64,000 nt of DNA from a virus (lineage: Duplodnaviria > Heunggongvirae > Uroviricota > Caudoviricetes): IMG/VR virus record IMGVR_UViG_3300035501_000580. One strand, given 5' to 3'. Numbering within the stretch: position 1 is the stretch's first letter; every line of letters starts with the position of its first letter. The notes below the pieces were generated by a model, which saw only the letters and a list, made by a program, of their open reading frames with translations, ran no database searches and was not told the origin of the DNA. This document shows, in pieces, positions 4,472-63,997 of this stretch. The position numbers were made by a program, and so were the translations under genes.

Positions 4472-4473
4472 TT

Positions 4474-12861: not shown

Positions 12862-12961
12862 GTACGAAGTCAATCAATGCTATCTCACGACATGATGATT
12901 ATTTGTGTGTAAAAATTTAAATTCTATAAGAATAATTTAAAAAAATTAGTAAAAAACTCTG

Positions 12962-13034
12962 TGACTCCGGTGGGGCTCGAACCCACGACCCACTGATTAA
13001 GAGTCAGTTGCTCTACCAACTGAGCTACGAAGCC
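12962..13034 (-). tRNA. tRNA-Lys(CTT)
   Basis: cloverleaf: D-arm GCTC-AGTTGGTA-GAGC, anticodon loop CTCTTAA, T-arm GTGGG-TTCGAGC-CCCAC. Confidence 0.85.
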
Positions 13035-13196
13035 TAATCAATCATGTCTCACGACATGATGATTTTCTCTCTCTCACTTAATAAATAATTTATTTATAAA
13101 TCAAAAACTTATATACAATGAAAAAAAAATAATGTACTAAAAAAAAACACTTACTATGGTTATGTCTCACGACATAAAAGCATCAAATGAAAAAGT

Positions 13197-13268
13197 AACT
13201 CCGATGGGACTCGAACCCACGACCTTCCAGTGTTTAACCAGACGCTCTACCAACTGAGCTACGGAGTT
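13197..13268 (-). tRNA. tRNA, canonical 72-nt cloverleaf but anticodon loop TTAAACA (nominal anticodon AAA, C at position 37)
   Basis: perfect D- and T-arms; anticodon stem needs two G.U pairs; isotype uncertain (Phe-like?). Confidence 0.65.
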
Positions 13269-13460
13269 TAATCAGTCTATCTCACGACATGATGATTATT
13301 TAATGTGTAAATTTTAAACAACTTTAAAAATATCAATTAAAACTCATTTGTTATGGTCATGTCTCACGACATGATAATTAAATCAAAAACTTATATAATA
13401 TTAAAAATATAGTAATATGAAAAAAATGTAATAAAAAAGCATTTCAACAAAATTCTTAGG

Positions 13461-13545
13461 AACTCAGGAGGGACTCGAACCCTCGTCGCATGGGTTTCAA
13501 TAAAGAAATTCAACATAGCTCGACCAACTGAGACTTACTGAGTTC
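13461..13545 (-). tRNA. tRNA-like gene (84-85 nt) with good acceptor and T-arm but no canonical anticodon stem
   Basis: AACTCAG/CTGAGTT acceptor, T-arm GAGGG-TTCGAGT-CCCTC; central region does not fold as standard anticodon/variable arm. Confidence 0.45.
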
Positions 13546-37952: not shown

Positions 37953-38158
37953 TTTTTATAAATGTGAAGTTGAATTATTAAGATGATATAAACTACAACG
38001 GATCCCCAAGAAAAGAGTGACATTATAAAGTGAAATATCAAATCACGTTGTATGTTTTTGAACCTAAGAGATGATTTTTTGTAATCACTCAATATGATAT
38101 GGATAGTATAAAGTCCAAGACAATATGCTACTAAAATACCTAAAATATATCCTATCAT
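37949..38158 (-). CDS. small 2-TM membrane protein (69 aa)
   Basis: two hydrophobic helices; translationally coupled to upstream NTase (ATGA overlap). Confidence 0.45.
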   Translation of the reverse strand: MIGYILGILVAYCLGLYTIHIILSDYKKSSLRFKNIQRDLIFHFIMSLFSWGSVVVYIILIIQLHIYKN

Positions 38159-39429
38159 TTCTGGTTGAATTTATTTCGTGCATATAACAGGAGGTCATTT
38201 ACCATATCAACAGAAATCTCATCAGGAATAACAGATTTAGATATTTCTTCATCCATTTGAGATTTAAGTTCTGTTAGTTTAGACATCAACTCATCATAAG
38301 TATATTTTCTATTTCTAACATCAAGGAGAAAATCAGCATCAATTCCTCTACGGTCAAGTTTAAGTCCTTCACCCTTAGCTACTTCAATCGCCATAGAAAT
38401 CAGACGGAAACAGTGACACATATTCTTAGCATCATAGAACTTCGCTGAGTTTTCTTTTTCGAGTCCTTCAAGGTTGTTTTCATACCGAGCTTTGTTACGG
38501 TTTTTCTTCCAATCCTCATACTCACGATATTTCTTACAATGTTGTCTATAACCATTTTCATTGTAAGACATATAACAAATAGGTGTAGAACCTTTTAATG
38601 TTTCTGAAAAACGGATTTCATTACTTGAACCCACATTAGAAATGATACCGCAGTGTTTACCAAAAGGAGTTTTAATTTTTTCATAAAGATTTTTCATTAC
38701 CCAAGACCATTTCATTTCGGTCTGGTCAAATTTAGATGTTAAAGTTGTATATACATAGTTCAAGAATTTGTCATTACGATTTTTTTCGTCGGTGAAAAAT
38801 TCTTTTGTGATACCATTTAGTTCAATGTGTTGACCAAAGTCATAGAACACATCAAACATATTAGGCATATTGGGCACATTTACCAATCCACAGTTACTTT
38901 GGTCAAGACCTCGTTCACTGAGCCAAGTTTGAATGTTTTGACTACCCTGTCCCTTAAAAGTATAACAAAAATCGAGGGGAGTCTTTCTAACCATCTTCTC
39001 AATGTCCCAGTGAATTTTCTTATCTTGTCCCTGAGCCTTTTTAATCTGAGACACAGCATAACCACCAAAAGGCATGAAACATTGTTTGGTGATGAATTGG
39101 TCACGATACTTTTTGATATTCGTAATGATGGGGTGTTCATACAAGACCTTATCATCAGGAACGAACAGGGCTTCCAATACAGTGGGGTTAGATGATAGGA
39201 GTAGTCTCATGAACTTACCTATCTCCCACCAACAGGTATCATGTTTCTCATCACAGATTTCATTCTGGTAATCAAAACCAAGGTCAAGAAGTTGATTTGA
39301 GGGAGCGATATAGATACCACCTTCATCAACGTCACTTGTTTCGACATTGGTACCATAGACCTGTGAACCCCTTATGTAACGATATAAGAGAAGTCCTTTA
39401 TCTTCTATGTCTTTGAATGTTAGTTTCAT
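38155..39429 (-). CDS. pol-beta-superfamily nucleotidyltransferase, 424 aa (OAS/cGAS/DncV-like arrangement GS.VYGT-N5-SDVDEG)
   Basis: N-terminal RGSQVYGTNVETSDVDEGGIYI signature. Confidence 0.55.
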   Translation of the reverse strand: MKLTFKDIEDKGLLLYRYIRGSQVYGTNVETSDVDEGGIYIAPSNQLLDLGFDYQNEICDEKHDTCWWEIGKFMRLLLSSNPTVLEALFVPDDKVLYEHPIITNIKKYRDQFITKQCFMPFGGYAVSQIKKAQGQDKKIHWDIEKMVRKTPLDFCYTFKGQGSQNIQTWLSERGLDQSNCGLVNVPNMPNMFDVFYDFGQHIELNGITKEFFTDEKNRNDKFLNYVYTTLTSKFDQTEMKWSWVMKNLYEKIKTPFGKHCGIISNVGSSNEIRFSETLKGSTPICYMSYNENGYRQHCKKYREYEDWKKNRNKARYENNLEGLEKENSAKFYDAKNMCHCFRLISMAIEVAKGEGLKLDRRGIDADFLLDVRNRKYTYDELMSKLTELKSQMDEEISKSVIPDEISVDMVNDLLLYARNKFNQK

Positions 39430-48636: not shown

Positions 48637-48753
48637 TTGTTTACCATCGTGGGTTGCCAGAAGATGATTTTTTACAGACTTTGTTCACCAAGAGTCCGAA
48701 TAGAACACACATCCATTGCCTTTCAGATAGCCTCGGTTATCGGCGGAGAGGGA

Positions 48754-48838
48754 GGGATTCGAACCCCCGGACCAATAATGGCCAACGGTTTTCAAGACCG
48801 CCGCAATCGACCACTCTGCCACCTCTCCAAAATTTGTT
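48754..48838 (-). tRNA. tRNA-Ser(TGA), class II
   Basis: anticodon loop CTTGAAA, long variable arm, T-arm GGGGG-TTCGAAT-CCCTC. Confidence 0.85.
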
Positions 48839-49398
48839 TAACCAAATTTTTTAATTGTATCTTGAACTCGATTTAACCAACCTGTCAAGAATTGTTTTTG
48901 TGAAGGATTTTTAGCAACATTATCCTTATATCTTTGGATTCTTTGATTACCTAATTCCTTCGCAATTTCATCTTTATGAACTCCATTAGCATATGAAATT
49001 GTTGTTTGTCCAATCTTACCATCTACAACAATATTCACCTTACATACTTTATTTATGGCTTGTTGTAATAATTTAACTGAACCTACACAACCACTATTTA
49101 CTGCATGATCATATAAATGAGCTGAGATTAATAAAGAATCAAAACTATCAATCTTCATAGTGTTATAAAAATTAGTGAGATAAAATTCCTCTACTAATGT
49201 TTGTAATTGTAGATTGTTTATTTTTTGATTCCATTTTAGAGGTTTATTCTTATCTACAATACTCCATCCAGACCACTTAGGCCAATTCTTTCTGGAAATA
49301 CCACAGTAAGTTTCTCCACCTCTATCTCCTTTTACATTTGCATATCCACCTTCAATAGTTAAAGTTGCGTCAATAATTTGTTTCGCTTTGGTTGTCAT
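48838..49398 (-). CDS. endolysin-type lysozyme, glycoside hydrolase family 108 with C-terminal PG-binding-like domain (186 aa)
   Basis: N-terminal EGGYANVKGDRGGETYCGIS = GH108 hallmark EGG(Y/F).N...D.GG.T..GI. Confidence 0.75.
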   Translation of the reverse strand: MTTKAKQIIDATLTIEGGYANVKGDRGGETYCGISRKNWPKWSGWSIVDKNKPLKWNQKINNLQLQTLVEEFYLTNFYNTMKIDSFDSLLISAHLYDHAVNSGCVGSVKLLQQAINKVCKVNIVVDGKIGQTTISYANGVHKDEIAKELGNQRIQRYKDNVAKNPSQKQFLTGWLNRVQDTIKKFG

Positions 49399-49780
49399 TT
49401 GTTTGTTTTACATATTGTGTATGGTCAGAATAACCAAGGATGTAAATTATTAAAATCTCTTTCTTCACTTACATTTGGTTCATTTAACATCTGACGAATT
49501 TGGTAGTCAGTAAAGTTTCTCAACTGTTTTTCAAAAGTAACATCTTCAAATCGCATAGGTAGAAAATTTTAAGGTTAGTATTAATGCGGAGAGCAGTGGA
49601 CACGAACCACATACGATTACTCGTACAATCGGTTTAGCAGACCGTCCTTTTACCTCAAAAGTTTACTCTCCATAATCAACAAGATTCAAAATCAAAACCA
49701 CCTATATAAATTTATGTACTAAAAAGTTGCGGTATGAATCTTTACTTCATCTAATATATTTATGTAATTGTGAGCCCGGT

Positions 49781-49853
49781 GGGACTCGAACCCACGACCC
49801 CCACATTAAAAGTGTGGTGCTCTACCATCTGAGCTACGGACCCCAACCTAATG
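49781..49853 (-). tRNA. tRNA-Lys(TTT)
   Basis: anticodon loop CTTTTAA; canonical D and T arms. Confidence 0.85.
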
Positions 49854-50441
49854 TTTGTCTTTTATTGTCCATGTGATATTTCTACCAAAACCTCTATTCG
49901 CTCCTTTATATGTAGAAGTGAGTGAGTGACAATTTGGACAAACCAATCTTAAATTATTCTCAGAGTTATTTTCTGAGTTTCCATCTATGTGATCGATTTC
50001 TAAAGGAATAGTGTTTGTATATGGGTTTACTTTTGACCAACCACATTCACAACATTTATAATCAAACTTTTCAAATATATAACGTCGTAATTGCTTAGGT
50101 AATTGTCCCCATTTTGTTGACTTAGCGATTGAGTTATCTAATTTGTAATGTTCCACCCACTGTTTATATTCAAAGTCCTGTTGACATTTATTTGAACAAT
50201 ATTTACATCCGGACTTTATTTCTTTTCCACAATATTTACAGTAGGTTTTCTTACCTTGACCTTTATTGACAGGTTGTTTTCCTGAGTTTTTAGACCGAAC
50301 AGGTAACTCAAAACCTCTATTCCTCATTACTTTCTTGATATTGTTACCAGAACATCCAAATAGACGACCAATTTCCTCATAAGAAAGTTTATCTACAAAT
50401 ATATATCTCTTTAATATGTCAATGTTCTCAGTCCAATCCAT
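49848..50441 (-). CDS. HNH homing endonuclease (197 aa)
   Basis: C..C zinc pairs and PLEIDHIDGNSENNSENNLRLVCPNCHSL. Confidence 0.75.
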   Translation of the reverse strand: MDWTENIDILKRYIFVDKLSYEEIGRLFGCSGNNIKKVMRNRGFELPVRSKNSGKQPVNKGQGKKTYCKYCGKEIKSGCKYCSNKCQQDFEYKQWVEHYKLDNSIAKSTKWGQLPKQLRRYIFEKFDYKCCECGWSKVNPYTNTIPLEIDHIDGNSENNSENNLRLVCPNCHSLTSTYKGANRGFGRNITWTIKDKH

Positions 50442-50443
50442 AG

Positions 50444-50516
50444 AGTTGACGAGCGGAGTCGAACCGCTGAATAATGGTTTTGCAGACCAGTCCCTTAACC
50501 ACTTGGGTACGTCAAC
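50444..50516 (-). tRNA. tRNA-Cys(GCA)
   Basis: anticodon loop CTGCAAA, T-arm AGCGG-TTCGACT-CCGCT. Confidence 0.8.
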
Positions 50517-50526
50517 ATTGTTTAGG

Positions 50527-50608
50527 TGCTCATGAAGGGACTCGAACCCATACGTCTTTTGACAACAGATCCTAAGTCTGTCGCGTCTACCAATTCCGCC
50601 ACATGAGC
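50527..50608 (-). tRNA. tRNA-Leu(TAG), class II
   Basis: anticodon arm ACAGA-CTTAGGA-TCTGT, long variable arm. Confidence 0.8.
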
Positions 50609-50614
50609 AGTCTA

Positions 50615-51313
50615 TTAAGTTCTTTCTTGTTTAGATGATTGAGATGTTTTCAAGATAGAAGCGTCATACATTTCAGGAGAAGTAATAATATCTCTACCTC
50701 TACTTGGTGCATTATTCTTCATATTATCTAACATTGATTGAAATTGTGATTTTCTATCATCACTTGTTTTCAATACATCATCTCTTTCACCACTGGAAGC
50801 CAACTGATAAACTGTATTAGGAGCACCTGATTGAACAGTTCTTGAAGATGCACTATTATATACATTAGAACTTCCAGATAAATAATCAGTTGTTGTAGTA
50901 GGTATGGTAATGTTAGTATTTATTACGCCATTATATCTAAAAAAGTGTATAGTTGTCGTACCTAAACTCGCATATACCATTACACTATTTTGTTTGAAAT
51001 CTGATATCCATTGACTACCAGAATACATACAAATATGACCGGGAGCACTTTGGTTGTAAGTAGGTTTCATATATACTGCAATATCACCGGGTTGAGGTGT
51101 ATATGTACTGGCATTACTACTACTCATCTGGGCAACTTCATTAAAACCTATTGAGGGTAAATAATTAATATATTTCCAAGCCCAGTCAGGTCTTCCTGAT
51201 GTGGATAACCCTCCAGATTCAATGGCCATTCTGACATACTTCGCACACTTACCTTGTGATTTAACAGAGGCTCTACTTGCTAATGAATTTACACATTTTT
51301 GTAAATCAAACAT
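50615..51313 (-). CDS. CHAP-domain peptidoglycan hydrolase with S/T-rich C-terminal region (232 aa)
   Basis: Cys block GKCAKYVRMAI and His block GDIAVY ... GHICMY. Confidence 0.65.
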   Translation of the reverse strand: MFDLQKCVNSLASRASVKSQGKCAKYVRMAIESGGLSTSGRPDWAWKYINYLPSIGFNEVAQMSSSNASTYTPQPGDIAVYMKPTYNQSAPGHICMYSGSQWISDFKQNSVMVYASLGTTTIHFFRYNGVINTNITIPTTTTDYLSGSSNVYNSASSRTVQSGAPNTVYQLASSGERDDVLKTSDDRKSQFQSMLDNMKNNAPSRGRDIITSPEMYDASILKTSQSSKQERT

Positions 51314-51337
51314 AATTCACCTATTCCAATATATCGG

Positions 51338-51408
51338 TTGGAATATCAAGGCTCGAACTTGAAACGACAGAACCAAAATCTGTAGTGTTACCATTACACC
51401 ATATTCCA
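51338..51408 (-). tRNA. tRNA-Gln(TTG)
   Basis: anticodon arm ACAGA-TTTTGGT-TCTGT. Confidence 0.8.
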
Positions 51409-51416
51409 ATGTTTAG

Positions 51417-51490
51417 CGGTGTATATGGGACTCGAACCCATGACCCCCTGCGTGACAGGCAGGTATTCTAACCATCTGAACTAATACACC
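51417..51490 (-). tRNA. tRNA-Asp(GTC)
   Basis: anticodon arm CCTGC-CTGTCAC-GCAGG. Confidence 0.85.
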
Positions 51491-51497
51491 TCACTAT

Positions 51498-51968
51498 TTA
51501 ATAATTATCATCTTTATCTACGGCGACACCTTCCCAAATACCTAAAAGGTTTTCGTCAGTTTCAGGGTTTTCGATAAAGTATTCTTCAACTTTTTCTTTA
51601 GTTTTATTATTAAATTTATAGACAGTTATTGATTTTACGGTAGGACATCTATCTTCTTCTTCTAACTCAGCAATGTCCCATACAACATCAACAATTCTAT
51701 AAAAATCCCAAAAGAACACACCTTCACCAAACCATTGTTTACCTACATAAAAGGGAGTATACATCTCAAGATGTCTTAACACATCTTCTTTATATCTGGT
51801 TTTTATTTCTTCAATTTCTTGTTCTCTTCTAGAACGATACGAACCAGTGTCTTTTATGTGATTTAATTGGTCTATATACATTGTTCTTATATATGAACAA
51901 ATTCTTTCATAATGTTCATGGAAATAATTGATATTTCTACGAGCTTCTTTAATGTGACTTTTTATCAT
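51498..51968 (-). CDS. hypothetical protein (156 aa)
   Basis: ORF. Confidence 0.5.
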   Translation of the reverse strand: MIKSHIKEARRNINYFHEHYERICSYIRTMYIDQLNHIKDTGSYRSRREQEIEEIKTRYKEDVLRHLEMYTPFYVGKQWFGEGVFFWDFYRIVDVVWDIAELEEEDRCPTVKSITVYKFNNKTKEKVEEYFIENPETDENLLGIWEGVAVDKDDNY

Positions 51969-51995
51969 GATTGATTAAAGGTTAAAATATATGTG

Positions 51996-52070
51996 GGGGT
52001 TAGAATGAGGATCGAACTCATACCACAAGTGCCACAAACTCGGATGCTAACCGTTAACACCATCTAACCC
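51996..52070 (-). tRNA. tRNA-His(GTG) with encoded G-1
   Basis: anticodon loop TTGTGGC; extra 5' G pairing with discriminator C (8-bp acceptor). Confidence 0.8.
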
Positions 52071-52226
52071 ATGTCAAAAAATCTCGACTAACAGCTCATC
52101 TTCTTGTATCCATACTTTCCAGATGATTTTGAGCTTCATAGTGTTATCGGGTATGAACTCTCATGGTTACTGACTTCGAGATTTCAAATGTGAACACTAC
52201 TACTAACCATTTTTCATGTTCTTTGG

Positions 52227-52298
52227 TAGCGGGGGTAGGGATCGAACCTACGACCTTAAGCTTATGAGGCTTACGAGCTACCTCTGCTCTACCCCGCA
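52227..52298 (-). tRNA. tRNA-Met(CAT) (elongator or Ile2-type); CCA encoded downstream at 52224-52226
   Basis: anticodon arm TAAGC-CTCATAA-GCTTA. Confidence 0.8.
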
Positions 52299-52303
52299 AT
52301 ATA

Positions 52304-52771
52304 TCATAATTTCAATAGACCATTATCAAATTCCCAATGATGATTAGGACACAAACCAATTAGATTGTCCGGGTTATTTATTTCTGATATTGGAGTGTCA
52401 TCACTAAACTCTGAAACTGGTTTAATGTGAGCTACCTCAACATGATTTGTATAACCACATATTTCACATCTATAAGGTTTATTTGATTTCATGAATGATT
52501 TTCTGGCAAGTCTTGTGATAGAACTTCGAGCGGATTGCCAATTTTTTCTATTTTTGAATAAATCACCTTTTGTTTGGATAGATATTGGAGTTTTAGTTTG
52601 ACTTTGTGGTTCAGGTATCATCAGGTCTTTACATCTTTTTTTGATGGATGTTTTGACATTTGATGACATCGGATATACATAACCAAATCTATAACTTAAA
52701 TCTTTCCATGTAGATGATGTCAAAATAATTTCAGAAAACTGTTCATCATCAAATGAATCTAAATTAGTCAT
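52304..52771 (-). CDS. HNH homing endonuclease (155 aa)
   Basis: CEICGY ... AHIKP ... NLIGLCPNHH. Confidence 0.7.
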   Translation of the reverse strand: MTNLDSFDDEQFSEIILTSSTWKDLSYRFGYVYPMSSNVKTSIKKRCKDLMIPEPQSQTKTPISIQTKGDLFKNRKNWQSARSSITRLARKSFMKSNKPYRCEICGYTNHVEVAHIKPVSEFSDDTPISEINNPDNLIGLCPNHHWEFDNGLLKL

Positions 52772-52786
52772 ATCTTATTATTTTAG

Positions 52787-52859
52787 AGCCGAATAAGGGA
52801 CTCGAACCCATGACCCCGAGATTACAAATCACGTGCTCTACCAACTGAGCTAATTCGGC
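52787..52859 (-). tRNA. tRNA-Thr(TGT)
   Basis: anticodon loop TTTGTAA; one mismatch in anticodon stem. Confidence 0.75.
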
Positions 52860-53100
52860 ATGATTAAAATTTGGTTTTATTTACTACATCAGAAGAAAAG
52901 GTAAAAAGGTGGTTGGAATGATAATGAATTATTTTTGATTTTCTCGCAAATAATTCATAGGTATCATTCCGGAAGGACAAAAGTAGTAAGTAGAAGATGC
53001 TTCAAGATACCACTTAAAGGCCTTTTTAAATGATTTACAAATTTTCTTCATAACTGTAAACTTATTATATATATTAAAATTTCAATGTTCTCTTAATTTG

Positions 53101-53173
53101 TGGAGTCACTCGGGATCGAACCGAGAACCATAGAATGCAAATCTATAATTTTAGCCAGTTAAACTATGACCCC
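53101..53173 (-). tRNA. tRNA-Ala(TGC)
   Basis: anticodon arm ATAGA-TTTGCAT-TCTAT. Confidence 0.8.
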
Positions 53174-53255
53174 CGACTGAGGCGGGAAGGATTTGAACCA
53201 ACAACCAGGATCCCATGCACTACTCCGTTGCCCACTGAGGGGTAAATCCCTCTTC
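53174..53255 (-). other. tRNA-like element (T-loop GGTTCAAATCC) without foldable cloverleaf; flanked by direct repeat ACTGAGG
   Basis: T-arm-like segment only; acceptor complement absent. Confidence 0.25.
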
Positions 53256-53269
53256 CCTTAGTTATCGCT

Positions 53270-53560
53270 TTACGTTTCTGTTCCTCGTGTCACTTGTGTC
53301 CGTATTCCCTTTGTGTCAGTCCGTATTCCATTTTGTGTCACCGAGTTCGTATTCCATTTTGTGTCATCCAGTTTTCCCATTGTGTCATCCCGTTTCCATC
53401 CGGTTCCTGTTTCTGTATCAAGAGTTTCCATCTGTTTCTGTATCCACTTGTGTCCGTATTCCCCAGTGTCCGTTTCCATGTTTTTGTGTCACCTGTAATC
53501 TGTTGTGTCACCCGTAGTCCTATTGCGTTTCCGTAGTTGTGTCGTAGTAGGAAATTACCT
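53270..53560. repeat. degenerate tandem repeat array (TTGTGTCA / GTATTCC / GTTTCC units, ~20-24 bp period), strongly pyrimidine-skewed on plus strand
   Basis: read directly: cttgtgtccgtattcc, ctttgtgtcagtccgtattcc, attttgtgtcaccgagttcgtattcc ... Confidence 0.7.
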
Positions 53561-53590
53561 ACTCTATCCAAATTGAGCTACCGCCCATGG
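53551..53590 (-). pseudogene. tRNA 5'-half fragment (acceptor + D-arm GCTC-AATTTGGATA-GAGT) lacking T-arm
   Basis: reverse complement GGGCGGTAGCTCAATTTGGATAGAGTAGGTAATTTC; no downstream T-arm. Confidence 0.35.
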
Positions 53591-53663
53591 CATCGGGTAC
53601 GGGATTTGAACCCGTGTTCCTACCGTGAAAGGGTAATGTCCTAGACCCCTAGACGAACCCGAC
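53591..53663 (-). tRNA. tRNA-Glu(TTC)
   Basis: anticodon loop CTTTCAC, T-arm ACGGG-TTCAAAT-CCCGT. Confidence 0.8.
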
Positions 53664-53753
53664 AAACTTAAATTGTAATTCTACTTCAAAGAACTGTATA
53701 TTAAATATAACAAATAATCTTGATTTCTCTCAGATTTATTGTTTTTTTTTCTG

Positions 53754-53826
53754 TGGAGAAGGATGGAATCGAACCATCATAAGAGGATTTTCAGTCCACC
53801 GCATTGACCAACTTTGCTACCTCTCC
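53754..53826 (-). tRNA. tRNA-Phe(GAA)
   Basis: anticodon loop CTGAAAA, T-arm GATGG-TTCGATT-CCATC. Confidence 0.8.
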
Positions 53827-53832
53827 ATTTTG

Positions 53833-53916
53833 TGGGAGTGGAGGGAATCGAACCCCCTCAGACGATAGTCAGCAGATTTACAGTCTGCCGCGACTCTCCA
53901 ACTTCGCCGCACTCCC
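53833..53916 (-). tRNA. tRNA-Tyr(GTA), class II
   Basis: anticodon arm GCAGA-CTGTAAA-TCTGC, long variable arm. Confidence 0.85.
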
Positions 53917-53925
53917 AATTTGTTG

Positions 53926-54007
53926 TACCTTCTCTGGGACTCGAACCCAGACACTGTTAAGTATTTGATTTTGAATCAAACGTGTCTACCAATTCCACCA
54001 AGAAGGC
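53926..54007 (-). tRNA. tRNA-Leu(CAA), class II
   Basis: anticodon arm TTTGA-TTCAAAA-TCAAA, long variable arm. Confidence 0.8.
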
Positions 54008-54009
54008 AA

Positions 54010-54052
54010 AAAAGAAACTCACATCTTCTGGTTAATTAGAATATGTGAGTTT
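54010..54052. terminator. bidirectional terminator-like hairpin (10-bp stem aaactcacat/atgtgagttt flanked by A4 and T4)
   Basis: seen in sequence immediately downstream (minus sense) of tRNA block. Confidence 0.5.
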
Positions 54053-54292
54053 TATATCATTTTAATTATTACACATTAACACACATATCCGGTATCCCCC
54101 AAATCTTCATCAGATGTGGTTGATGATTGGTAACAACTATATGTAAACTGTTTATGTGACATAATTATCATATTCTAATAAAATAGACAAGATTCAACTT
54201 TGACCTGAAAAAAATATAATGAACATAAGTTTGCGGTATGAATCTTTACTACCAATTTAATTTATTTATGTAAATTTATTTTTAAAATTTTG

Positions 54293-54365
54293 AGCGAGAT
54301 ATGGGACTCGAACCCACGACTTTCAGATTGGAAATCTGACGCTCTACCAACTGAGTTAATCTCGC
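54293..54365 (-). tRNA. tRNA-Gly(TCC)
   Basis: anticodon arm TCAGA-TTTCCAA-TCTGA. Confidence 0.8.
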
Positions 54366-54640
54366 AAGTAAACAGGCGACGTAGAACTGGGGTTATGTTC
54401 ACCCCAATAAACACACACTCGAAATCTGGTAGCTTTCTACCCCCACTTAGACGTCCCCTTTCGTGTCCTCTGTATCAGGGTTCTCAGTACAGCAATCTTT
54501 CAGGTATCAACACCTCCCCATTCTATGTCTTTGGCTTGGATACACTAACTTCAACCATCAGACCAGTTCTCTCAACATTAGACTCCTATGGATGTGATTA
54601 TCCAAATCGGGATAATCAATACTTCACTCTACTTGATTAG
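54366..54640. ncRNA. candidate structured RNA / non-coding spacer (GC-elevated, no minus-strand ORF)
   Basis: composition shift and absence of coding capacity on the used strand. Confidence 0.2.
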
Positions 54641-54900
54641 AGCAAATGTCTCACATAGTGTCTGTGTCCATTGTATCCAAGTTTCGATTTCCATTGTATC
54701 CAAGTTTCGATTTCCATTGCAACCCCTTCGTTTCCATCTGTTTCCATATTATATAGGTGTCATCACTCTGTATTCCTATTTTTATTGTTTCCCTTTGTAT
54801 CCGTTCGTGACTCAAGTTTTGTATCCACCCTTCGATGTCCATTGTATCCACCCTTCGATGTCCATTGTATCAATCTGTAATCTACATGAATGAGAAATAT
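54640..54900. repeat. second degenerate tandem repeat array (TTGTATCC-containing units incl. two perfect 23-bp tandem copies ccattgtatccaagtttcgattt and ttgtatccacccttcgatgtcca x2)
   Basis: read directly; same TGT(A/G)TCC core as array at 53270-53560. Confidence 0.7.
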
Positions 54901-55016
54901 TGCCCTTATCCCTTTTCAACCACACCATCAACAGGTCGTTTTTACATACGAACTAAACCTTCGACGTGTATAATTGTATTCTACACACCTGTTAAATTTT
55001 CAATGTTCTCTTTTCG

Positions 55017-55090
55017 CGGCTCAGGTAGGACTCGAACCTACGACACCCTGATTAACAGTCAGGTGCTCTAACCTACTGAGCTACTGAGCC
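55017..55090 (-). tRNA. tRNA-Asn(GTT)
   Basis: anticodon arm CCTGA-CTGTTAA-TCAGG. Confidence 0.85.
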
Positions 55091-55098
55091 AACTCATC

Positions 55099-55524
55099 TT
55101 AAATATTTATGATTTTCTCAAACGAAAAATCTTCGTAATTCAAAGGTTCATATTGGTTATGTGTTTCCTTAAATGGTACATTAACCTTTATGGCATTTCT
55201 ATTTTGAAGTTTCTCGATAGGTATTAACATCAATATTTTAGATTCTACATTATAGATTGAAAAATAATCAATGTCATTACAATCATATTTTTTAAAGTAG
55301 TTGTGACCATTCCTAATAGTTCCACTTCTTAAATCTACGGTAAAACCATCTTTCTTCATTTTATATGAAGTTTTAACCTGTATTTTATTAAGTTTACCAT
55401 TAAATTCGGCTATCAAATCAGCACTTTCATTGTCACCAAATGGGATATAAACAGGAACTCCTAACTCCACGAATTTGGTTAATGTAATTGCTTCTCCAAT
55501 ATTTCCAACTCTTTTACTCTGCAT
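55099..55524 (-). CDS. putative PD-(D/E)XK-type nuclease (possible homing endonuclease), ~141 aa from Met at 55524
   Basis: GEAITLTKFVELG ... PFGDNESADLIAE ... KIQVKT resembles D..E.K restriction-fold core; start trimmed to avoid tRNA-Pro overlap. Confidence 0.4.
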   Translation of the reverse strand: MQSKRVGNIGEAITLTKFVELGVPVYIPFGDNESADLIAEFNGKLNKIQVKTSYKMKKDGFTVDLRSGTIRNGHNYFKKYDCNDIDYFSIYNVESKILMLIPIEKLQNRNAIKVNVPFKETHNQYEPLNYEDFSFEKIINI

Positions 55525-55526
55525 AG

Positions 55527-55599
55527 TCGGGATGACACGACTCGAACGTGCGACCTCACCACCCCAAATGGCAAATTCTACCAACTGAAATACATCCCG
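55527..55599 (-). tRNA. tRNA-Pro(TGG)
   Basis: anticodon loop TTTGGGG, T-arm GCACG-TTCGAGT-CGTGT. Confidence 0.7.
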
Positions 55600-55610
55600 A
55601 AAAATTTTAA

Positions 55611-55688
55611 TGGTCAGGTGGGAAGGACTCGAACCTCCAACAGTACGACCTACTTCGGCCGCCCTCTAACCAATTGATCTACCACCTG
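55611..55688 (-). tRNA. tRNA-like gene with genomically encoded CCA; good acceptor/T-arm, irregular D- and anticodon arms; 5' part overlaps the last 8 codons of HNH gene
   Basis: acceptor CAGGTGG/CCACCTG, T-arm GGAGG-TTCGAGT-CCTTC, ACCA tail; anticodon stem closes a 6-nt loop. Confidence 0.4.
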
Positions 55689-56253
55689 TTTTTCTAATAC
55701 CTTGTATGATTTTTCTTGTCAATCCAAAAAACTCAGCCACTTTTTCCCAAGAATTAAGTTCCAGATATTTTTGATTTACTTCATCACAAGAAGGATACCT
55801 TTTATCTTTCAATCTACATTCAGGAGAACAATAGATTTTACCTTTCATTCTGGTGAACAACTTACCACAACATTTACATTTAGTATAAGCTGTTTTCTTA
55901 GGTGTGATAAAAGATGATTTATTGGAATCTTCTATGACTTCATTAATCTCATCCATGTTAAGTCCGGGGTTGTGAATTTCCCTATGACAATTAGCACACA
56001 ATAATTGACATTTATCCAACTCTTTGTTAAGTATGTCAATTCTGGTATTTGCGAAGTGATGGATATCTAATTGAAATAACTTAGTAGAAGGGTTGATGTG
56101 GTGAAAATCGAGAGCTGATATATTATGATTATATCCACAGATTTCACATTTACCACCCTTAAAGATGATAGCCTCATATTTTCTTTTGAGACCTCTTATC
56201 TTCTGGTTAGTATATTTATTAGGGTTGTCCATAACTTCAAAATTTGTGTCCAT
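55666..56253 (-). CDS. HNH homing endonuclease (195 aa)
   Basis: KCEICGY ... DFHHINP ... LLCANCHREIH; second zinc module CKCCG ... CSPEC. Confidence 0.7.
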   Translation of the reverse strand: MDTNFEVMDNPNKYTNQKIRGLKRKYEAIIFKGGKCEICGYNHNISALDFHHINPSTKLFQLDIHHFANTRIDILNKELDKCQLLCANCHREIHNPGLNMDEINEVIEDSNKSSFITPKKTAYTKCKCCGKLFTRMKGKIYCSPECRLKDKRYPSCDEVNQKYLELNSWEKVAEFFGLTRKIIQGIRKTGGRSIG

Positions 56254-56524
56254 CCAAGGAATTGAACCTTTGTGGTTGAAAAATGTCTAACCACCTACGA
56301 CCTCCGGAGAGTCATCCCTATTACCAAACAGGGCAAGAACAGACAAGTGACCATTGTTTTGGTACAATGGAGAAAACCCGTACAAGGCTACCAATTAGGC
56401 GGCGGCGTACATGACCTTTTCGGGTCGTGAAAAATTGTTGCCAGTTAAATAGGCCATAGACTTCTCCTTCATTCCTACTCATATGTCATCAATACCAGTC
56501 ATCCCCTTATATTTATTTTACTTT

Positions 56525-56560
56525 GTGGAGATGGTGGGGATCGAACCCACGTCTAACATA
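56525..56560 (-). pseudogene. tRNA 3'-half fragment (variable loop + T-arm GTGGG-TTCGATC-CCCAC + acceptor CATCTCC-A)
   Basis: no matching 5' half (GGAGATG) nearby. Confidence 0.4.
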
Positions 56561-56589
56561 CTTTCTTAATATTATCAACAAAATCTATA

Positions 56590-56663
56590 GTGGTCCGGAT
56601 AGGGCTTGAACCTATGACCTTCTGATTATGAGTCAGCTGCTCTAACCAACTGAGCTACGGGAC
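56590..56663 (-). tRNA. tRNA-Met(CAT), second copy (distinct sequence; elongator/initiator/Ile2 not resolvable)
   Basis: anticodon loop CTCATAA, T-arm ATAGG-TTCAAGC-CCTAT. Confidence 0.8.
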
Positions 56664-56858
56664 CGAAATACAAAGTTCAATAAATGGATATGAGTTATAA
56701 TGAGTTGCAATAAATTGCGGTATGAACTTTTATGTATTTTAATGAAAATTAATAGACGAATTTATCAAGATACTATCACTCTATGGCAGAGGATTATTGC
56801 GGTCTGTATCTTTATTTAAGTTTCAACAAATTAAATATAACAAAATGATTTCAATTTT

Positions 56859-57317
56859 CTACTTTTTTGTCAATTTTTCTTTGACTATTTGAGAAGCCAT
56901 TGCACCATCAACTTGACCTGTATAAGTTTTGTTGATGTATCCCATGACTTTTCCCATACCTGACATATCCGTTACTGAAAAATCTGAAATAACTTGGTCA
57001 ACGATTTTTTCAACTTCATCTACTGTCAACATTTTAGGGAGATATTCACTAAGGACACGATATTCTCTGATTTCCTTATCCGCTAATTCAGGTCTATGAT
57101 TAACTCGATAAATTTCACAAGTTTCCAGACGGGACTTAGCTAACTTTTGAATAATCTTAATAATGTCTTTATCATCAGGATTTTTATTTCCATTCTTAGC
57201 TGTTTTCAATTCCATGATAGATGTTTTGATATTACGAATTGTATCTGCTCGTAATTCATCTCTGGATTTGATAGCTTCCATTAAATCCTTTTGAAGTTTT
57301 TCTTCAAGAGTGTTCAT
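56859..57317 (-). CDS. YqeY/GatB-C-terminal-domain-like protein (152 aa)
   Basis: LEEKLQKDLMEAIKSRDELRADTIRNIKTSI ... LSEYLPKMLTVDEVEKIVDQVISD ... MGKVMGYINK ... GQVDGAMASQIVKEKL aligns along whole length with YqeY family. Confidence 0.65.
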   Translation of the reverse strand: MNTLEEKLQKDLMEAIKSRDELRADTIRNIKTSIMELKTAKNGNKNPDDKDIIKIIQKLAKSRLETCEIYRVNHRPELADKEIREYRVLSEYLPKMLTVDEVEKIVDQVISDFSVTDMSGMGKVMGYINKTYTGQVDGAMASQIVKEKLTKK

Positions 57318-57337
57318 CTGTAAAAATTTTTAGTTAG

Positions 57338-57411
57338 TTGGACTGATGGGATTTGAACCCATGACCCCTACATTATCAGTGTAGTGCTCTAACCAACTGA
57401 GCTACAGTCCA
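57338..57411 (-). tRNA. tRNA-Ile(GAT)
   Basis: anticodon arm CTACA-CTGATAA-TGTAG. Confidence 0.85.
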
Positions 57412-57589
57412 AGAATAAACAAGATGTGGGTGTTCTTCCTATTTTTATTCAGTGGTGGAAATCCAAGCAACCCACTTTTCTCATATACCGAAGTGATATG
57501 AGCATTGTATAATTAATGATTGTCGAGAAGTTATTGCAGTTACCACATCTTTATGTAAAACAAAACAATAAACAAAAAACAATATGTTG

Positions 57590-57624
57590 TGATCCGGATG
57601 AGATTCGAACTCATGACCCACAGT
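57590..57624 (-). tRNA. 3' exon of split tRNA (anticodon 3' stem ACTGT, variable GGGTC, T-arm ATGAG-TTCGAAT-CTCAT, acceptor CCGGATC-A)
   Basis: pairs perfectly with 5' exon at 58245..58283 across a 620-bp interruption. Confidence 0.6.
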
Positions 57625-58244
57625 TTAGCATACTACTCTATATTTCTATAGCCAATATTATTAATATTGTTGTAGTCTGGACTTTGTCTTCACCATTTCA
57701 GGTAGGAGTGCGTAAAGTCTCTACGGAGTCTCTTATAAGTAAGTTCCCTCGGCGTTTTCTTCATCATTATATTGTGTATAACATGCTAAGACGTTCACCG
57801 ATATAGCACTCTCCAGTTTATGTGTTAATCCATGATGTTGTATTTCAACAGATAATTTACCTCTACACTTACGTGAACAACAAGTACAATTTAGTTTACT
57901 TGGTTTTTGTAAGTGTGTTTGTCGTTTTTCTCTGATAAATATTTCACCACACCACGGACATTGTAATTTTACCATTTGTTTACCTTTTAATAAACCATGT
58001 AATTTACAATGTTCTTTATTCACCATAACTTCAAGATTTTCTATACGATTATCTTTCTTATTATGATTTTTGTGATGAACAACTTCATTACTATTCAAAA
58101 CTCGACCAAGATAATTTTCCATAATTACTCTATGTTCTAAAACATATCCAGCATCTGATGCGTTTGGATGTTCAGGACATAATACATAATTGTAATCACC
58201 TTTACTTATAACTTTTTGAATATTCCACATAAACGCTCCTATTA
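57625..58244 (-). mobile_element. ~620-bp intervening element inside tRNA anticodon loop carrying HNH endonuclease ORF (candidate group I intron or HEG insertion)
   Basis: exon halves on both sides; SD AGGAG + ATG begin 3 nt and 17 nt (respectively) after the anticodon loop. Confidence 0.5.
57733..58230 (-). CDS. HNH homing endonuclease (165 aa) encoded within the tRNA-interrupting element
   Basis: SNEVVHHKNHNKKDNRIENLEVMVNKEHCKLHG (HNH) and C-terminal CPWCG ... CTCCSRKC zinc module. Confidence 0.7.
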   Translation of the reverse strand: MWNIQKVISKGDYNYVLCPEHPNASDAGYVLEHRVIMENYLGRVLNSNEVVHHKNHNKKDNRIENLEVMVNKEHCKLHGLLKGKQMVKLQCPWCGEIFIREKRQTHLQKPSKLNCTCCSRKCRGKLSVEIQHHGLTHKLESAISVNVLACYTQYNDEENAEGTYL

Positions 58245-58283
58245 TTCAAAGACTGTTGCTCTATCCAACTGAGCTACCGGACC
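58245..58283 (-). tRNA. 5' exon of split tRNA (acceptor GGTCCGG, D-arm GCTC-AGTTGGATA-GAGC, anticodon stem ACAGT + loop CTTTGAA; nominal anticodon TTG)
   Basis: reverse complement of 58245-58283. Confidence 0.6.
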
Positions 58284-62326: not shown

Positions 62327-62391
62327 AATATAATTTGATTAAAAAAGTAAAAGGAGATACCTTATAAAAGATACCTCCTATATTAATTTAG

Positions 62392-62474
62392 TACCAGCAC
62401 TGGGACTCGAACCCAGACAGCACAATTGCCAAGGGATTTTAAGTCCCTCGTGTCTACCATTCCACCATGCTGGC
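62392..62474 (-). tRNA. tRNA-Leu(TAA), class II
   Basis: anticodon arm AGGGA-CTTAAAA-TCCCT, long variable arm. Confidence 0.85.
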
Positions 62475-62496: not shown

Positions 62497-62967
62497 TTAA
62501 TTTACCTTTTTGTTTTTACCTCTATAATTATCTGTAAGAGCATGACAATTTGGACATAATACTTGTAAATTATCTAATCTATTGTCACTTCGATTACCAT
62601 TTATGTGGTGTAGTTCTAATGGGATTGTTTCATTTTCCCATGTTGTCCTACCACACCTCTCACATTTACAATTTTTTAAACCTTCTCGTATAAGTCTATT
62701 TTTTAGTTTATATGAATTGTAATAACATCCATCAACTAATATTTCAGATAGAGGTTTGGTTTCTATTGGCTTGAATTTTAGTCCAACATTCCAACCTTGT
62801 CCTGTAAAATGTGAAATGTCTAAATTTAACTCTTTTATCTTTTTAGTCACAGTTTCATAATTACCACCAGCAGGAATTAAACCCAATGTTTTGATAACAC
62901 CTGCAATAGAATTATTTTCAGTGACTGCTTTGACAAATTGTTCATCAGTCCATTTCTTTTTAGACAT
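62497..62967 (-). CDS. HNH homing endonuclease (156 aa)
   Basis: CKCERCG ... [29 protein letters not shown]. Confidence 0.75.
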
Positions 62968-63010: not shown

Positions 63011-63997
63011 TTATTTGGATTTCTTCATCTTTTTTTCATTTTTTACTTGTTTCAAAAGACTGGGAAGTTGTCTATAACATTCAGTTTCTGTTATCGTCGG
63101 TCGTGCGAAAGCTTGTTTTAATAGTTTATCCTTAATCTCCTGAACTTCTTTACATGGTTCTAACTCCAAACTATACATGATATCATCTCCACTAATAGGT
63201 AATTTATATCCAAACATAGGATTATTAATATGTTTCATGAAGTAATCGAATTGACCTGTTACATTGTGTTCAGGAGCATGGGACATATTATCACATTCGA
63301 TAAGTTTACACAGTCTGATATACATTTCGGTCGTACCACATTCATAAACTAACTTATTAAATGACTTTTCTTTCATCTTACAACAGTCATTTCCAAAGTT
63401 CTTAGTTCTCATGTGATTTCTTACCAACCAAGATACTTTTTTGACAGTTTTATTATCAAATTTGAGGTTGTATAACATTTTCTGGGCATACTTTACGGAA
63501 TAAACCTCATGTTCATAAAAATGTACTTTATTATCTTTACGAATTTGGGTTTCAATTTTTCCATAATCATGACAAATACAAGCCAACGCATTGATTAGGT
63601 CAGGTTCATAATGGTTCTGGTAGTATTCAAGAACGGCCATTGTGTGTTCATAAACGTCACCAAAATGATATTCGTTTTGTTCCATACCCATCATGTGTCT
63701 AAATGTGTTATCGACGAAATCCATTACTTTGGTTTCACATAAAGTTCTAACACCATAGACAGGATTTTTTGACACGAGGATTTTAGAGAACTCATCACGT
63801 ATTCTCTCTCTTGAAATGATATTAAGACCATATCTATTTTCGATTAGACCTTCATATGTTTTCTTATCAATATCAAAACCAAGGACAGTGGCCATACGAA
63901 TACATCTCATAATACGAAGTGGATCATCATTGAAAGTAGTGTTTACATCTTCCAAAGGACATCTAATGATTTTGTTCTTAATGTCATCCAATCCCAT
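63011..63997 (-). CDS. tRNA nucleotidyltransferase (CCA-adding enzyme) C-terminal body incl. HD-like region; N-terminal catalytic head lies beyond the window edge
   Basis: FNDDPLRIMRCIRMATVLGFDID = hallmark ED.LR.LRA.RFAA.LGF of class-II CCA enzymes/poly(A) polymerases; CHDYGK HD-like motif; ORF open at window boundary. Confidence 0.6.
   Translation of the reverse strand: MGLDDIKNKIIRCPLEDVNTTFNDDPLRIMRCIRMATVLGFDIDKKTYEGLIENRYGLNIISRERIRDEFSKILVSKNPVYGVRTLCETKVMDFVDNTFRHMMGMEQNEYHFGDVYEHTMAVLEYYQNHYEPDLINALACICHDYGKIETQIRKDNKVHFYEHEVYSVKYAQKMLYNLKFDNKTVKKVSWLVRNHMRTKNFGNDCCKMKEKSFNKLVYECGTTEMYIRLCKLIECDNMSHAPEHNVTGQFDYFMKHINNPMFGYKLPISGDDIMYSLELEPCKEVQEIKDKLLKQAFARPTITETECYRQLPSLLKQVKNEKKMKKSK

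Follow-up and report, generated by a model that had tools for sequence, protein, structure and literature searches.

How should an array of phage transfer RNA (tRNA) genes be read when endonuclease genes and apparent tRNA fragments lie scattered through it? This question is raised by a 64,000-nt stretch of DNA (hereafter, the window) from the IMG/VR virus record IMGVR_UViG_3300035501_000580, a member of the Caudoviricetes. A preliminary description of the window had reported an island of 19 canonical tRNA genes, one further tRNA-like gene, five HNH endonuclease genes and a putative PD-(D/E)XK nuclease gene, together with several tRNA halves and remnants, and had proposed that homing endonuclease genes drive ongoing rearrangement and gene conversion of the tRNA array. 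We analysed the window with ARAGORN, with Rfam (tRNA model RF00005, gathering score 29), and with Pfam and PHROGs profiles. We read the region as a translation-support island that has been colonised by homing endonucleases, and give this reading a probability of about 80%; such islands are already known. Two genes carry most of the argument, a tRNA-Arg(UCU) gene split by a predicted group I intron and a circularly permuted, two-piece transfer-messenger RNA (tmRNA) gene. Coordinates are collected in Table 1, and open reading frames (ORFs) are named by the lower of their two end positions.

A predicted group I intron in the tRNA-Arg(UCU) gene

The HNH gene 57733 had been described as one of the genes lying between tRNAs. 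With introns allowed, ARAGORN instead places it inside a tRNA gene that had been missed, at 57589-58283, which is broken by a 620-nt insert holding the entire ORF. In a group I intron, the 5' splice site follows a U and the intron ends in G. Only one pair of boundaries obeys these rules and also leaves a 7-nt anticodon loop, namely ...ACAGU-CUU, intron, CUAA-ACUGU..., with the anticodon UCU. The insertion point then lies between nucleotides 34 and 35 of tRNA-Arg(UCU); the predicted spliced junction is GCAACAGUCUU/CUAAACUGUGGG, in the loop context ...GUCUU/CUAAACUG, and the terminal intron G (57629) precedes the 3' exon CUAAACUG. When 58248-57629 is removed, what remains is a 75-nt sequence that ARAGORN, at its default thresholds, recognises as a canonical tRNA-Arg(tct) with the 7-nt loop CU-UCU-AA, and the same anticodon arm is found in uninterrupted tRNA-Arg(UCU) genes of 18 IMG/VR contigs. 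The boundaries that ARAGORN chooses by default would turn the split gene into a tRNA-Gln(UUG). We rejected this reading because its boundaries have neither a U ahead of the splice site nor a G at the intron end; the alignment described below places the U.G pair after CUU.

AGA is the commonest arginine codon in the window ORFs (231 of 543, 43%), and tRNA-Arg(UCU) is the only tRNA-Arg that ARAGORN finds in the window. Because the intron splits the gene, standard tRNA finders miss the tRNA for the commonest arginine codon of the window, and in an annotation the nuclease gene looks free-standing when it is really an intron passenger.

Group I helices can be assigned along the insert. The internal guide sequence GAG lies within AGGAG at ~58239-58235 and is followed by P2 (58234-58226 with 57824-57816), P3 (57815-57806 with 57711-57705), P7 (57719-57714 with 57685-57680), and P9 (57676-57672 with 57636-57632). 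In P2, GUUUAUGUG, which includes the AUG of the ORF, pairs with CACAUAAAC; the ORF occupies the P2 loop, and its last ~30 codons overlap the core helices P3-P6. P7 is GACUUU/AAAGUC and sits inside the motifs GUAGAGACU and AGUCCAG. As the GAG of AGGAG is 7 nt before the AUG and the AUG itself is in P2, we infer that folding of the ribozyme would hide the endonuclease start codon. Comparable occlusion of start codons is known for phage T4 intron endonucleases.

The intron belongs to a family. Downstream of its ORF, it is similar to a 210-nt intron without an ORF that lies in the tRNA-Ile(UAU) gene of a 485-kb megaphage (LR745208.1) and has a weak match to the Rfam model Intron_gpI. The core motif CGTAGAGACT...GGTGAAGA...AGTCCAG is present in 48 IMG/VR contigs, and in 40 of these ARAGORN places it within a tRNA gene; family members measure ~195-305 nt without an ORF and ~600-780 nt with one. 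Homologues match the group I model RF00028 with 47.8 (E = 4e-9), 36.8, 36.2, 29.1, 27, and 23.3 bits.

We aligned the window intron without its P2 loop (~220 nt outside the ORF loop) with 11 ORF-less introns of 195-245 nt (n = 12). From this alignment, RNAalifold recovers the four tRNA stems together with P1, P2, P4, P7, P8, P9, and the P9 hairpin (P9b). Counted on the structure derived from these same 12 sequences, 95.9% of the cells are paired, compared with 72.5 +/- 1.1% in shuffles and 35-43% with slid partners, and double changes occur at 41 of the 59 pairs. The splice-site pair in P1 (column pair 38-69) is U.G in 11 of the 12 sequences, including that of the window, where the exon ...CUU faces the guide GAG. 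Read by eye, a G precedes the 3' exon in all 12, and the splice rule puts the insertion always after U34, whether the host tRNA is Arg(UCU), Ile(UAU), Leu(UAA), or Thr(UGU).

These results bear on the possibility of a dead tRNA-Arg(UCU) gene, interrupted by a free-standing HNH gene that inserted in its anticodon loop, with no splicing to follow. Such a history would account for the absence of a group I match by Rfam in the window itself and for the default Gln(UUG) boundaries, which do not fit group I rules. Yet it leaves unexplained why the sequence outside the ORF loop aligns so well with ORF-less introns of the same family, why a U.G pair precedes the splice site and the intron ends in G, and why homologues reach 47.8 bits on RF00028; moreover, the exons are intact and give a canonical tRNA, and AGA is the commonest arginine codon with no other tRNA-Arg in the window to read it. 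We therefore regard a dead gene as most improbable and conclude from the alignment that HNH 57733 is part of an intact group I intron splitting tRNA-Arg(UCU).

Two contigs (L044 and L055) carry introns that are 94-99% identical to that of the window, from which ~320 nt of the ORF interior is gone and a 17-codon stub is left. This deletion is a direct presence/absence polymorphism of the endonuclease gene. As to the wider standing of the family, a 2014 review noted that all phage introns then known lay in protein-coding genes despite the many phage tRNA genes (PMC3984707). For Bacteroidota genomes, a 2026 survey described introns that lie in tRNA-Arg(UCU) and tRNA-Leu(UAA) genes and carry endonuclease genes (PMC13011429). 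Our literature search, of incomplete coverage, found no report of phage tRNA introns. The family sits in Arg(UCU), Leu(UAA), Ile(UAU), and Thr(UGU) genes of dozens of IMG/VR phage contigs, megaphages included, and this prevalence makes phage tRNA genes a real group I niche, contrary to the older generalisation.

Three further observations concern other phage loci. First, L044 also encodes an amber-suppressor-type tRNA (CUA) and a one-piece tmRNA with the tag GEYNEYRMAA (3785-3859 and 4426-4792). Second, a phage locus with an intron-containing tRNA-Arg (L030) has a second group I-like match at 4701-4890 (RF00028, 25.8 bits), which resembles the window intron core. Third, in a 484-kb phage (L021, LR756508.1), a HEARO RNA at 2191-2415 (RF02033, 144 bits) adjoins tRNA genes.

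A two-piece tmRNA gene beside YqeY

The stretch 56525-56560, previously listed as an orphan 3' tRNA half, is part of a permuted tmRNA, whose T arm and 3' acceptor strand it covers exactly. RF04321 matches 56395-56585 with 60.7 bits (gathering score 47), and an independent call by ARAGORN gives a "Permuted" tmRNA at 56304-56615, whose tag is GNNFSRPEKVMYAAA followed by a stop. As expected of a two-piece tmRNA, the frame has both a resume and a stop codon, and the C-terminus of the tag is of the hydrophobic or Ala-rich type. The discriminator A is at 56526, and CCA is not encoded. The acceptor stem contains G3.U70, the alanine identity pair in tmRNA and tRNA-Ala.

The YqeY-family gene of the window has relatives with 56-61% identity on a 411-kb contig (L194/L201), on a human-gut contig (L202), and in L197 and L203; in each of these, a permuted tmRNA follows 0.8-1.6 kb after YqeY. 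Their tags are GKNNGFSVNFGPVAQTAAPKAMVAFA plus stop and close variants. The L194 gene scores 47.1 bits on RF04321, and L195 is an additional homologue with a linker of ~85 nt. Across five aligned homologues, acceptor pairs 4-6 and the T stem have compensatory changes, those at pairs 4-6 being seen in L194, L197, L203, and L195, whereas G3.U70 is invariant. At least 120 IMG/VR contigs have the permuted arrangement; an exact 29-mer search of IMG/VR for the tmRNA returned nothing (in IMG/VR, the contig of this phage stops at window position 59871). We also scanned 185,579 species genomes (one per prokaryotic species) with an exact pattern and met this tmRNA type once, on a 360-kb contig (L277, JBGVNW010000068.1) that is labelled as a Bacilli metagenome-assembled genome and has a dispersed array of 12 tRNAs. 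Because it combines the same tmRNA type with a dispersed tRNA island, L277 is probably a mis-binned large phage.

Could the gene be a non-functional scrap of host ssrA that the phage acquired? A passage in PMC9004378 cites ssrA fragments in prophages, ARAGORN prints 'Tag not identified' for the window gene, and its tag is shorter than those of its relatives. The gene is nevertheless complete, with the P2 strand, the T arm, both acceptor strands, and a tag frame ending in AAA and a stop; at least five phage contigs have it in this same setting, where changes in the acceptor and T stems compensate one another while G3.U70 stays invariant; and in the species genomes, its type occurs only on the one contig that is probably phage. 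A host scrap is thus very unlikely.

A survey of isolated phages counted 53 unique two-piece tmRNAs, 50 of them marine or aquatic (PMC9004378); the supplementary tables of the tmRNA database paper give no phage breakdown (PMC11915505). As phage two-piece tmRNAs had been described before, the window gene belongs to a known kind in an unusual setting, and it widens the range of this kind from marine phages to gut or animal-associated phages with large tRNA islands. A speculative and rather improbable reading is that, with the YqeY-linked permuted gene, a tmRNA in two pieces arose independently in phages and not in any of the three bacterial lineages.

At the 3' end of the tmRNA gene, directly before the start codon of the adjacent HNH gene, 56248-56338 contains a T-loop-like hairpin (AAGG-UUCAAUU-CCUU) and a weak tRNA-like fold. 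These features may mark where the coding piece is processed at its 3' end.

tRNA genes, leftover elements, and endonuclease genes

The inventory given in the preliminary description largely stands. ARAGORN finds 19 canonical tRNA genes between 48742 and 57411 with exactly the isotypes claimed, and Rfam agrees with scores of 47-77 bits; the marginal tRNA-like gene with an encoded CCA exists as well. The minus strand carries every island gene, and the window is ~34% G+C. With an atypical tRNA-Ser(GCU), a tRNA-Leu(UAA) at 62.4 kb, and the intron-split tRNA-Arg(UCU), the total comes to 22 tRNA genes. CCA is encoded in 4 of 22 tRNA-type genes (21 tRNA genes and the tRNA-like gene; the tmRNA acceptor piece is counted apart). 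Two tRNA-related proteins are encoded as well, YqeY and a CCA-adding enzyme. The gene for the latter reaches the window edge; in L191 the complete protein has 472 amino acids with PolyA_pol, RNA-binding, and HD domains. Judged by the tRNA, HNH, and PDDEXK_5 matches, the gene inventory is right, far beyond chance.

Table 1. Features of the tRNA island and its surroundings in the window, listed by subject; positions are those of the window
Feature	Position	Strand	Basis and remarks
tRNA-Arg(UCU) 5' exon, positions 1-34, ending ...CUU	58249..58283	-	ARAGORN, alignment
Predicted group I intron, 620 nt, terminal G at 57629	57629..58248	-	Alignment; RF00028 on homologues
tRNA-Arg(UCU) 3' exon, CUAA + ACUGU ... 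CCGGAUC A	57589..57628	-	ARAGORN, spliced sequence
Circularly permuted two-piece tmRNA gene	56304..56589	-	RF04321; ARAGORN; 3' limit uncertain, may reach ~56254
tmRNA acceptor piece: T arm GUGGG-UUCGAUC-CCCAC, 3' acceptor strand CAUCUCC	56550-56534, 56533-56527	-	
tmRNA intervening linker, 19 nt	56507..56525	-	
tmRNA 5' acceptor strand GGGGAUG	56500..56506	-	G3 opposite U70, 7-bp acceptor stem
tmRNA tag frame GGC...UAA, encoding GNNFSRPEKVMYAAA plus stop	56395..56442	-	ARAGORN
tRNA-Ser(UGA)	48742..48828	-	ARAGORN; Rfam 58 bits
tRNA-Ser(GCU), atypical class II	49586..49671	-	Rfam 35.4 bits (gathering score 29); ARAGORN -ps
tRNA-Lys(UUU)	49770..49843	-	ARAGORN, Rfam
tRNA-Cys(GCA)	50443..50516	-	ARAGORN, Rfam
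tRNA-Leu(UAG)	50525..50608	-	ARAGORN, Rfam
tRNA-Gln(UUG)	51336..51408	-	ARAGORN, Rfam
tRNA-Asp(GUC)	51416..51490	-	ARAGORN, Rfam
tRNA-His(GUG), CCA encoded	51994..52069	-	ARAGORN, Rfam
tRNA-Met(CAU), CCA encoded	52224..52298	-	ARAGORN, Rfam
tRNA-Thr(UGU)	52786..52859	-	ARAGORN, Rfam
tRNA-Ala(UGC)	53100..53173	-	ARAGORN, Rfam
tRNA-Glu(UUC), CCA encoded	53588..53663	-	ARAGORN, Rfam
tRNA-Phe(GAA)	53753..53826	-	ARAGORN, Rfam
tRNA-Tyr(GUA)	53832..53916	-	ARAGORN, Rfam
tRNA-Leu(CAA)	53925..54007	-	ARAGORN, Rfam
tRNA-Gly(UCC)	54292..54365	-	ARAGORN, Rfam
tRNA-Asn(GUU)	55016..55090	-	ARAGORN, Rfam
tRNA-Pro(UGG)	55526..55599	-	ARAGORN; Rfam 48.4 bits
tRNA-Met(CAU), immediately upstream of the tmRNA gene	56590..56664	-	ARAGORN, Rfam
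tRNA-Ile(GAU)	57337..57411	-	ARAGORN, Rfam
tRNA-Leu(UAA), without interruption	62391..62474	-	ARAGORN, Rfam
tRNA-like gene, CCA encoded	55611..55688	-	Rfam 30.2 bits (marginal); ARAGORN -ps
CCA-adding enzyme gene, N-terminus outside the window	63011..63997	-	PolyA_pol_RNAbd + HD
YqeY-family protein gene	56859..57317	-	PF09424 130.7 bits
Region A, tRNA-derived ends around ~330 nt of A/G-rich short repeats	53174..53587	-	
Region B, non-coding spacer	54366..55015	-	Two perfect 23-nt x2.3 tandem arrays
Free-standing HNH gene, 197 aa, between tRNA-Cys and tRNA-Lys	49848..50441	-	PHROG HNH 3.5e-20
Free-standing HNH gene, 155 aa	52304..52771	-	Pfam HNH_2 49.2 bits (cut-off 21)
Free-standing PD-(D/E)XK gene, 141 aa, I-Ssp6803I family	55099..55524	-	PF11645 PDDEXK_5 83.7 bits (cut-off 26.1)
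Free-standing HNH gene, 195 aa	55666..56253	-	PHROG HNH 4.8e-23; no Pfam match
Intron-encoded HNH homing endonuclease gene, 165 aa	57733..58230	-	Pfam HNH_3 45.1 bits
Free-standing HNH gene, 22 nt upstream of tRNA-Leu(UAA)	62497..62967	-	phrog_10822 3.1e-48

Six homing-type endonuclease genes lie within ~14 kb; four HNH genes and the PD-(D/E)XK gene are free-standing, and the fifth HNH gene is borne by the intron. All five HNH ORFs match PHROG HNH families (1e-8 to 3e-48), and Pfam scores exceed the cut-off for 52304 (HNH_2), 57733 (HNH_3), and 62497 (27.8 and 24.3 bits); those of 49848 for HNH_3 and HNH fall slightly under it. The nuclease at 55099, which had been called only putatively, matches PF11645 across residues 21-146 (profile positions 1-128 of 138). 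Its true start is the ATG at 55524, two bases after tRNA-Pro, as in the 141-aa product called in L190. The HNH genes 49848, 52304, and 55666 and the PD-(D/E)XK gene are wedged between tRNA genes with spacers of 1-14 nt. Free-standing homing enzymes of the HNH type, the F-Tfl endonucleases, are known from the tRNA region of phage T5.

The preliminary description had suggested looking in related phages for the presence or absence of each HNH gene and for intact versions of the fragmentary tRNAs. For the intron ORF such a polymorphism is seen in L044 and L055, and the tRNA-Ser(GCU) and the tmRNA have homologues elsewhere; comparisons for the free-standing genes are indirect. HNH 62497, which neighbours the uninterrupted tRNA-Leu(UAA), has a homologue in L024 (55% identity, E = 1e-60) that lies within a group I intron of the same family in tRNA-Leu(UAA). 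One HNH lineage is thus both intron-borne and free-standing beside the same target gene, and the pair offers a concrete case for studying how homing genes shift between the two lifestyles. In the YqeY-tmRNA relatives, there is no room for an HNH gene after the tmRNA, the next tRNA being less than 25 nt away (L194, L197, and L202) or separated by a 20-nt gap that holds no ORF of at least 90 aa (L203). Nearby in L203 are two other nuclease-like genes, a SegE-type GIY-YIG match (20.5 bits, weak and below the cut-off) and a DUF559 gene. Related islands thus keep the YqeY-tmRNA synteny yet hold different nuclease genes at neighbouring spots. Taken together, these comparisons support the view that homing-endonuclease genes are mobile in such islands, with presence/absence observed for the intron ORF.

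The supposed remnant at 49575-49665 proved to belong to a tRNA. The stretch 49586-49671 folds as a class II tRNA-Ser(GCU) whose acceptor and 5' region are shared with a normally called phage tRNA-Ser(GCU) (L003); judged by this fold and homologue, it is a gene and not a remnant. Two other pieces, a 5' half at 53551-53590 and a T-arm-only element at 53174-53255, had been counted as separate orphans; they are the two ends of one tRNA-derived element, region A. Its 5' end has a UGGGCGG acceptor and a canonical D arm, and its 3' end has the GGUUCAAAUCC T loop and CCGCCUC. The ends form six acceptor pairs, with the first acceptor pair mismatched and the T stem weakened by two U-U pairs. Between them, 53298-53398 consists of 21/26-nt arrays with the motifs TGACACAA and GGAATACG. 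In region B, the arrays lie at 54667-54719 and 54819-54871 and have the unit GGATACAATGGA[C/A]ATCGAA. Both kinds of array occur only in these two spacers, which tRNA genes flank. The tRNA-like gene at 55611-55688 has a perfect acceptor stem and a T arm, and because its anticodon loop, GAAGUA, is only 6 nt long, it would be unable to decode normally; it is either a pseudo-tRNA or a non-decoding tRNA mimic.

Several identities for these regions were tried and rejected. When region A was treated as a tRNA with an intron, the tRNA calls obtained from 3,800 trial splices all depended on the fixed acceptor, D, and T parts, and none of them had a convincing anticodon arm or a normal variable region. 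As a second tmRNA, region A has no Rfam or ARAGORN call and no G3.U70. Neither region A nor region B stands out as a structured RNA (fold z-scores of +1.17, -1.88 with 20 shuffles, -0.51, and -1.12), and Rfam gives no match to either even at E <= 10. As CsrA-type sponges, the two regions are only mildly enriched in GGA (20 versus 14.6 +/- 2.2 and 14 versus 11.6 +/- 1.9). No homologues of region A or B were found in the phage collection, in IMG/VR by pattern, or in 2.5 Mb of fetched loci.

Are the halves and remnants then the debris of repeated cutting by homing endonucleases, followed by illegitimate repair and gene conversion within the tRNA array? The crowding of six endonuclease genes would suit such a history, as would the mismatched and weakened ends of region A with no usable anticodon arm, the 6-nt anticodon loop of the tRNA-like gene, the variable gene order among related islands, and the breaks of public assemblies within the island. 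But three of the presumed casualties are sound genes by the evidence above: the supposed 3' half belongs to a permuted tmRNA that is conserved, what was called a remnant is a tRNA-Ser(GCU) whose homologue elsewhere is intact, and the split tRNA-Arg holds an intact, covarying group I intron. We found neither duplicated tRNA segments nor conversion tracts, and four independent assemblies of the island are identical. Debris is therefore an unlikely explanation for the fragments as a whole. Of the proposal that homing endonuclease genes rearrange the array, the mobility of the endonuclease genes is retained, on the basis of the L044/L055 deletion, the L024 homologue, and the differing nuclease genes; the fragments as its debris, and gene conversion, are not. 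The only candidates left for decay products are region A, region B, and perhaps the tRNA-like gene with the 6-nt loop.

We also considered that region A, region B, and 6-nt-loop tRNA-like genes are functional phage non-coding RNAs acting as decoys or sponges. Such RNAs would be cut from tRNA precursors by RNase P and 3'-processing enzymes and would titrate, for example, host tRNA-targeting defence nucleases or an RNA-binding protein. We consider this quite doubtful.

Turning to the genome around the island, the phage is ~95 kb or larger. Megablast of the island against GenBank returned tRNA-sized matches only and no close phage relatives. One large protein is weakly similar to those of Bacteroides crAss-like phages, and the host assignment is tentative because it depends on these weak matches of a single protein. 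Independent public assemblies of the phage end at ~59870 (the IMG/VR contig, which stops at 59871) and at ~51850-52140 (JGI contigs L190 and L192); strain heterogeneity or repeats in the island may be the cause. The phage also encodes an RlaP-family nucleotidyltransferase (RNA repair pathway) and a SIR2-domain protein (window positions 38155-39429 and 15217-17127).

A second, small tRNA cluster lies on the minus strand at 12796-13534. Besides a tRNA-Lys(CUU), it comprises a weak tRNA-like call, whose loop is 6 nt long, and a pair of nearly identical tRNAs; their anticodon loop, UUAAACA, is read as that of Phe(AAA), which is not a usual anticodon. The motif ATGTCGTGAGAYA, with the hairpin CAUGUC-GUGA-GACAUG, occurs five times at 12881-13372 among these tRNA genes (0.01 copies expected by chance), and three of the copies sit ~10-23 nt upstream of a tRNA gene.

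The proposed island at work and its known counterparts

Several points weigh against reading the region as a translation-support island colonised by homing endonucleases. RF00028 does not match the window's own intron, a silence we ascribe to the ORF splitting P2, and even the best homologue, at 47.8 bits, is slightly below the gathering score of 50, though the E-values are significant. P3 and P6 of the intron were inspected by eye only. RNAalifold on the five tmRNA homologues missed the T arm and gave a covariation term of about zero; the set, with four close relatives, is small, unbalanced, and too little diverse to be informative. Among the lineage models for alpha, beta, and cyano tmRNA (RF01849, RF01850, and RF01851), the window gives a partial match to beta_tmRNA of 37.2 bits (gathering score 84) and none to the alpha and cyano models. 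The host is weakly indicated. Finally, the island picture does not account for regions A and B or for the tRNA-like gene with the 6-nt loop.

We propose that the island would work as follows. Long precursors would be transcribed, and the tRNAs would be cut out by host RNase P and 3'-processing enzymes. The phage CCA-adding enzyme would complete the products of the 18 tRNA-type genes without an encoded CCA as well as the tmRNA acceptor piece. The intron would splice itself, with guanosine attacking after the P1 U.G pair and the exons being ligated after the terminal G, to yield the window's only tRNA-Arg, which would read AGA. The HNH enzyme of the intron would cleave intron-less tRNA-Arg(UCU) alleles in co-infecting relatives, and the intron would be copied into them by homing. 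The tmRNA precursor would lose its 19-nt linker, leaving an acceptor piece and a coding piece that pair as an alanine-accepting tRNA-like domain; once aminoacylated, the tmRNA, with host SmpB, would rescue stalled ribosomes by trans-translation and tag their products.

Each of these elements has known counterparts. The intron resembles bacterial and plastid tRNA introns, among them those of cyanobacterial and plastid tRNA-Leu(UAA) at 34/35, Azoarcus tRNA-Ile, and the Bacteroidota (PMC13011429), in four respects. It is inserted after U34, inside the anticodon loop; its short P1 (CUU/GAG) contains a U.G pair and is stacked on the anticodon stem; the core measures ~200-230 nt, and a peripheral loop may or may not hold an endonuclease ORF; and the host tRNAs, Arg(UCU), Leu(UAA), and Ile(UAU), are shared. 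It differs from them in lying in a phage tRNA gene, and while the reported bacterial tRNA-Arg(UCU) introns carry PD-(D/E)XK genes, that of the window carries an HNH_3 gene.

The tmRNA has the order of parts common to known two-piece tmRNAs, i.e., P2 3' strand, T arm, 3' acceptor strand, linker, 5' acceptor strand, tag frame, and pseudoknot region. Like those of Alphaproteobacteria, Betaproteobacteria, Cyanobacteria, and marine phages such as Melnitz (PMC9004378; PMC11915505), it has G3.U70 and passes RF04321. Unlike the bacterial ones, it does not reach the alpha, beta, or cyano model, and unlike the mostly marine or aquatic phage ones, its type sits in a tRNA island by YqeY on gut or animal-associated contigs. 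By contrast, L044, which shares the window's intron, has a one-piece tmRNA.

As for the endonucleases, the product of 55099-55524 matches the full PF11645 domain of I-Ssp6803I, a PD-(D/E)XK homing endonuclease from the tRNA-fMet intron of Synechocystis; whereas I-Ssp6803I is intron-borne, the gene of the window is free-standing between tRNA-Pro and tRNA-Asn. The arrangement as a whole recalls the tRNA regions of T5 and T4 (T4 SegB, PMC2330249), where endonuclease genes are likewise lodged among tRNA genes of the same strand, a few nucleotides from their neighbours. Unlike those regions, the island described here in addition has an intron-borne endonuclease within a tRNA gene, plus a tmRNA.

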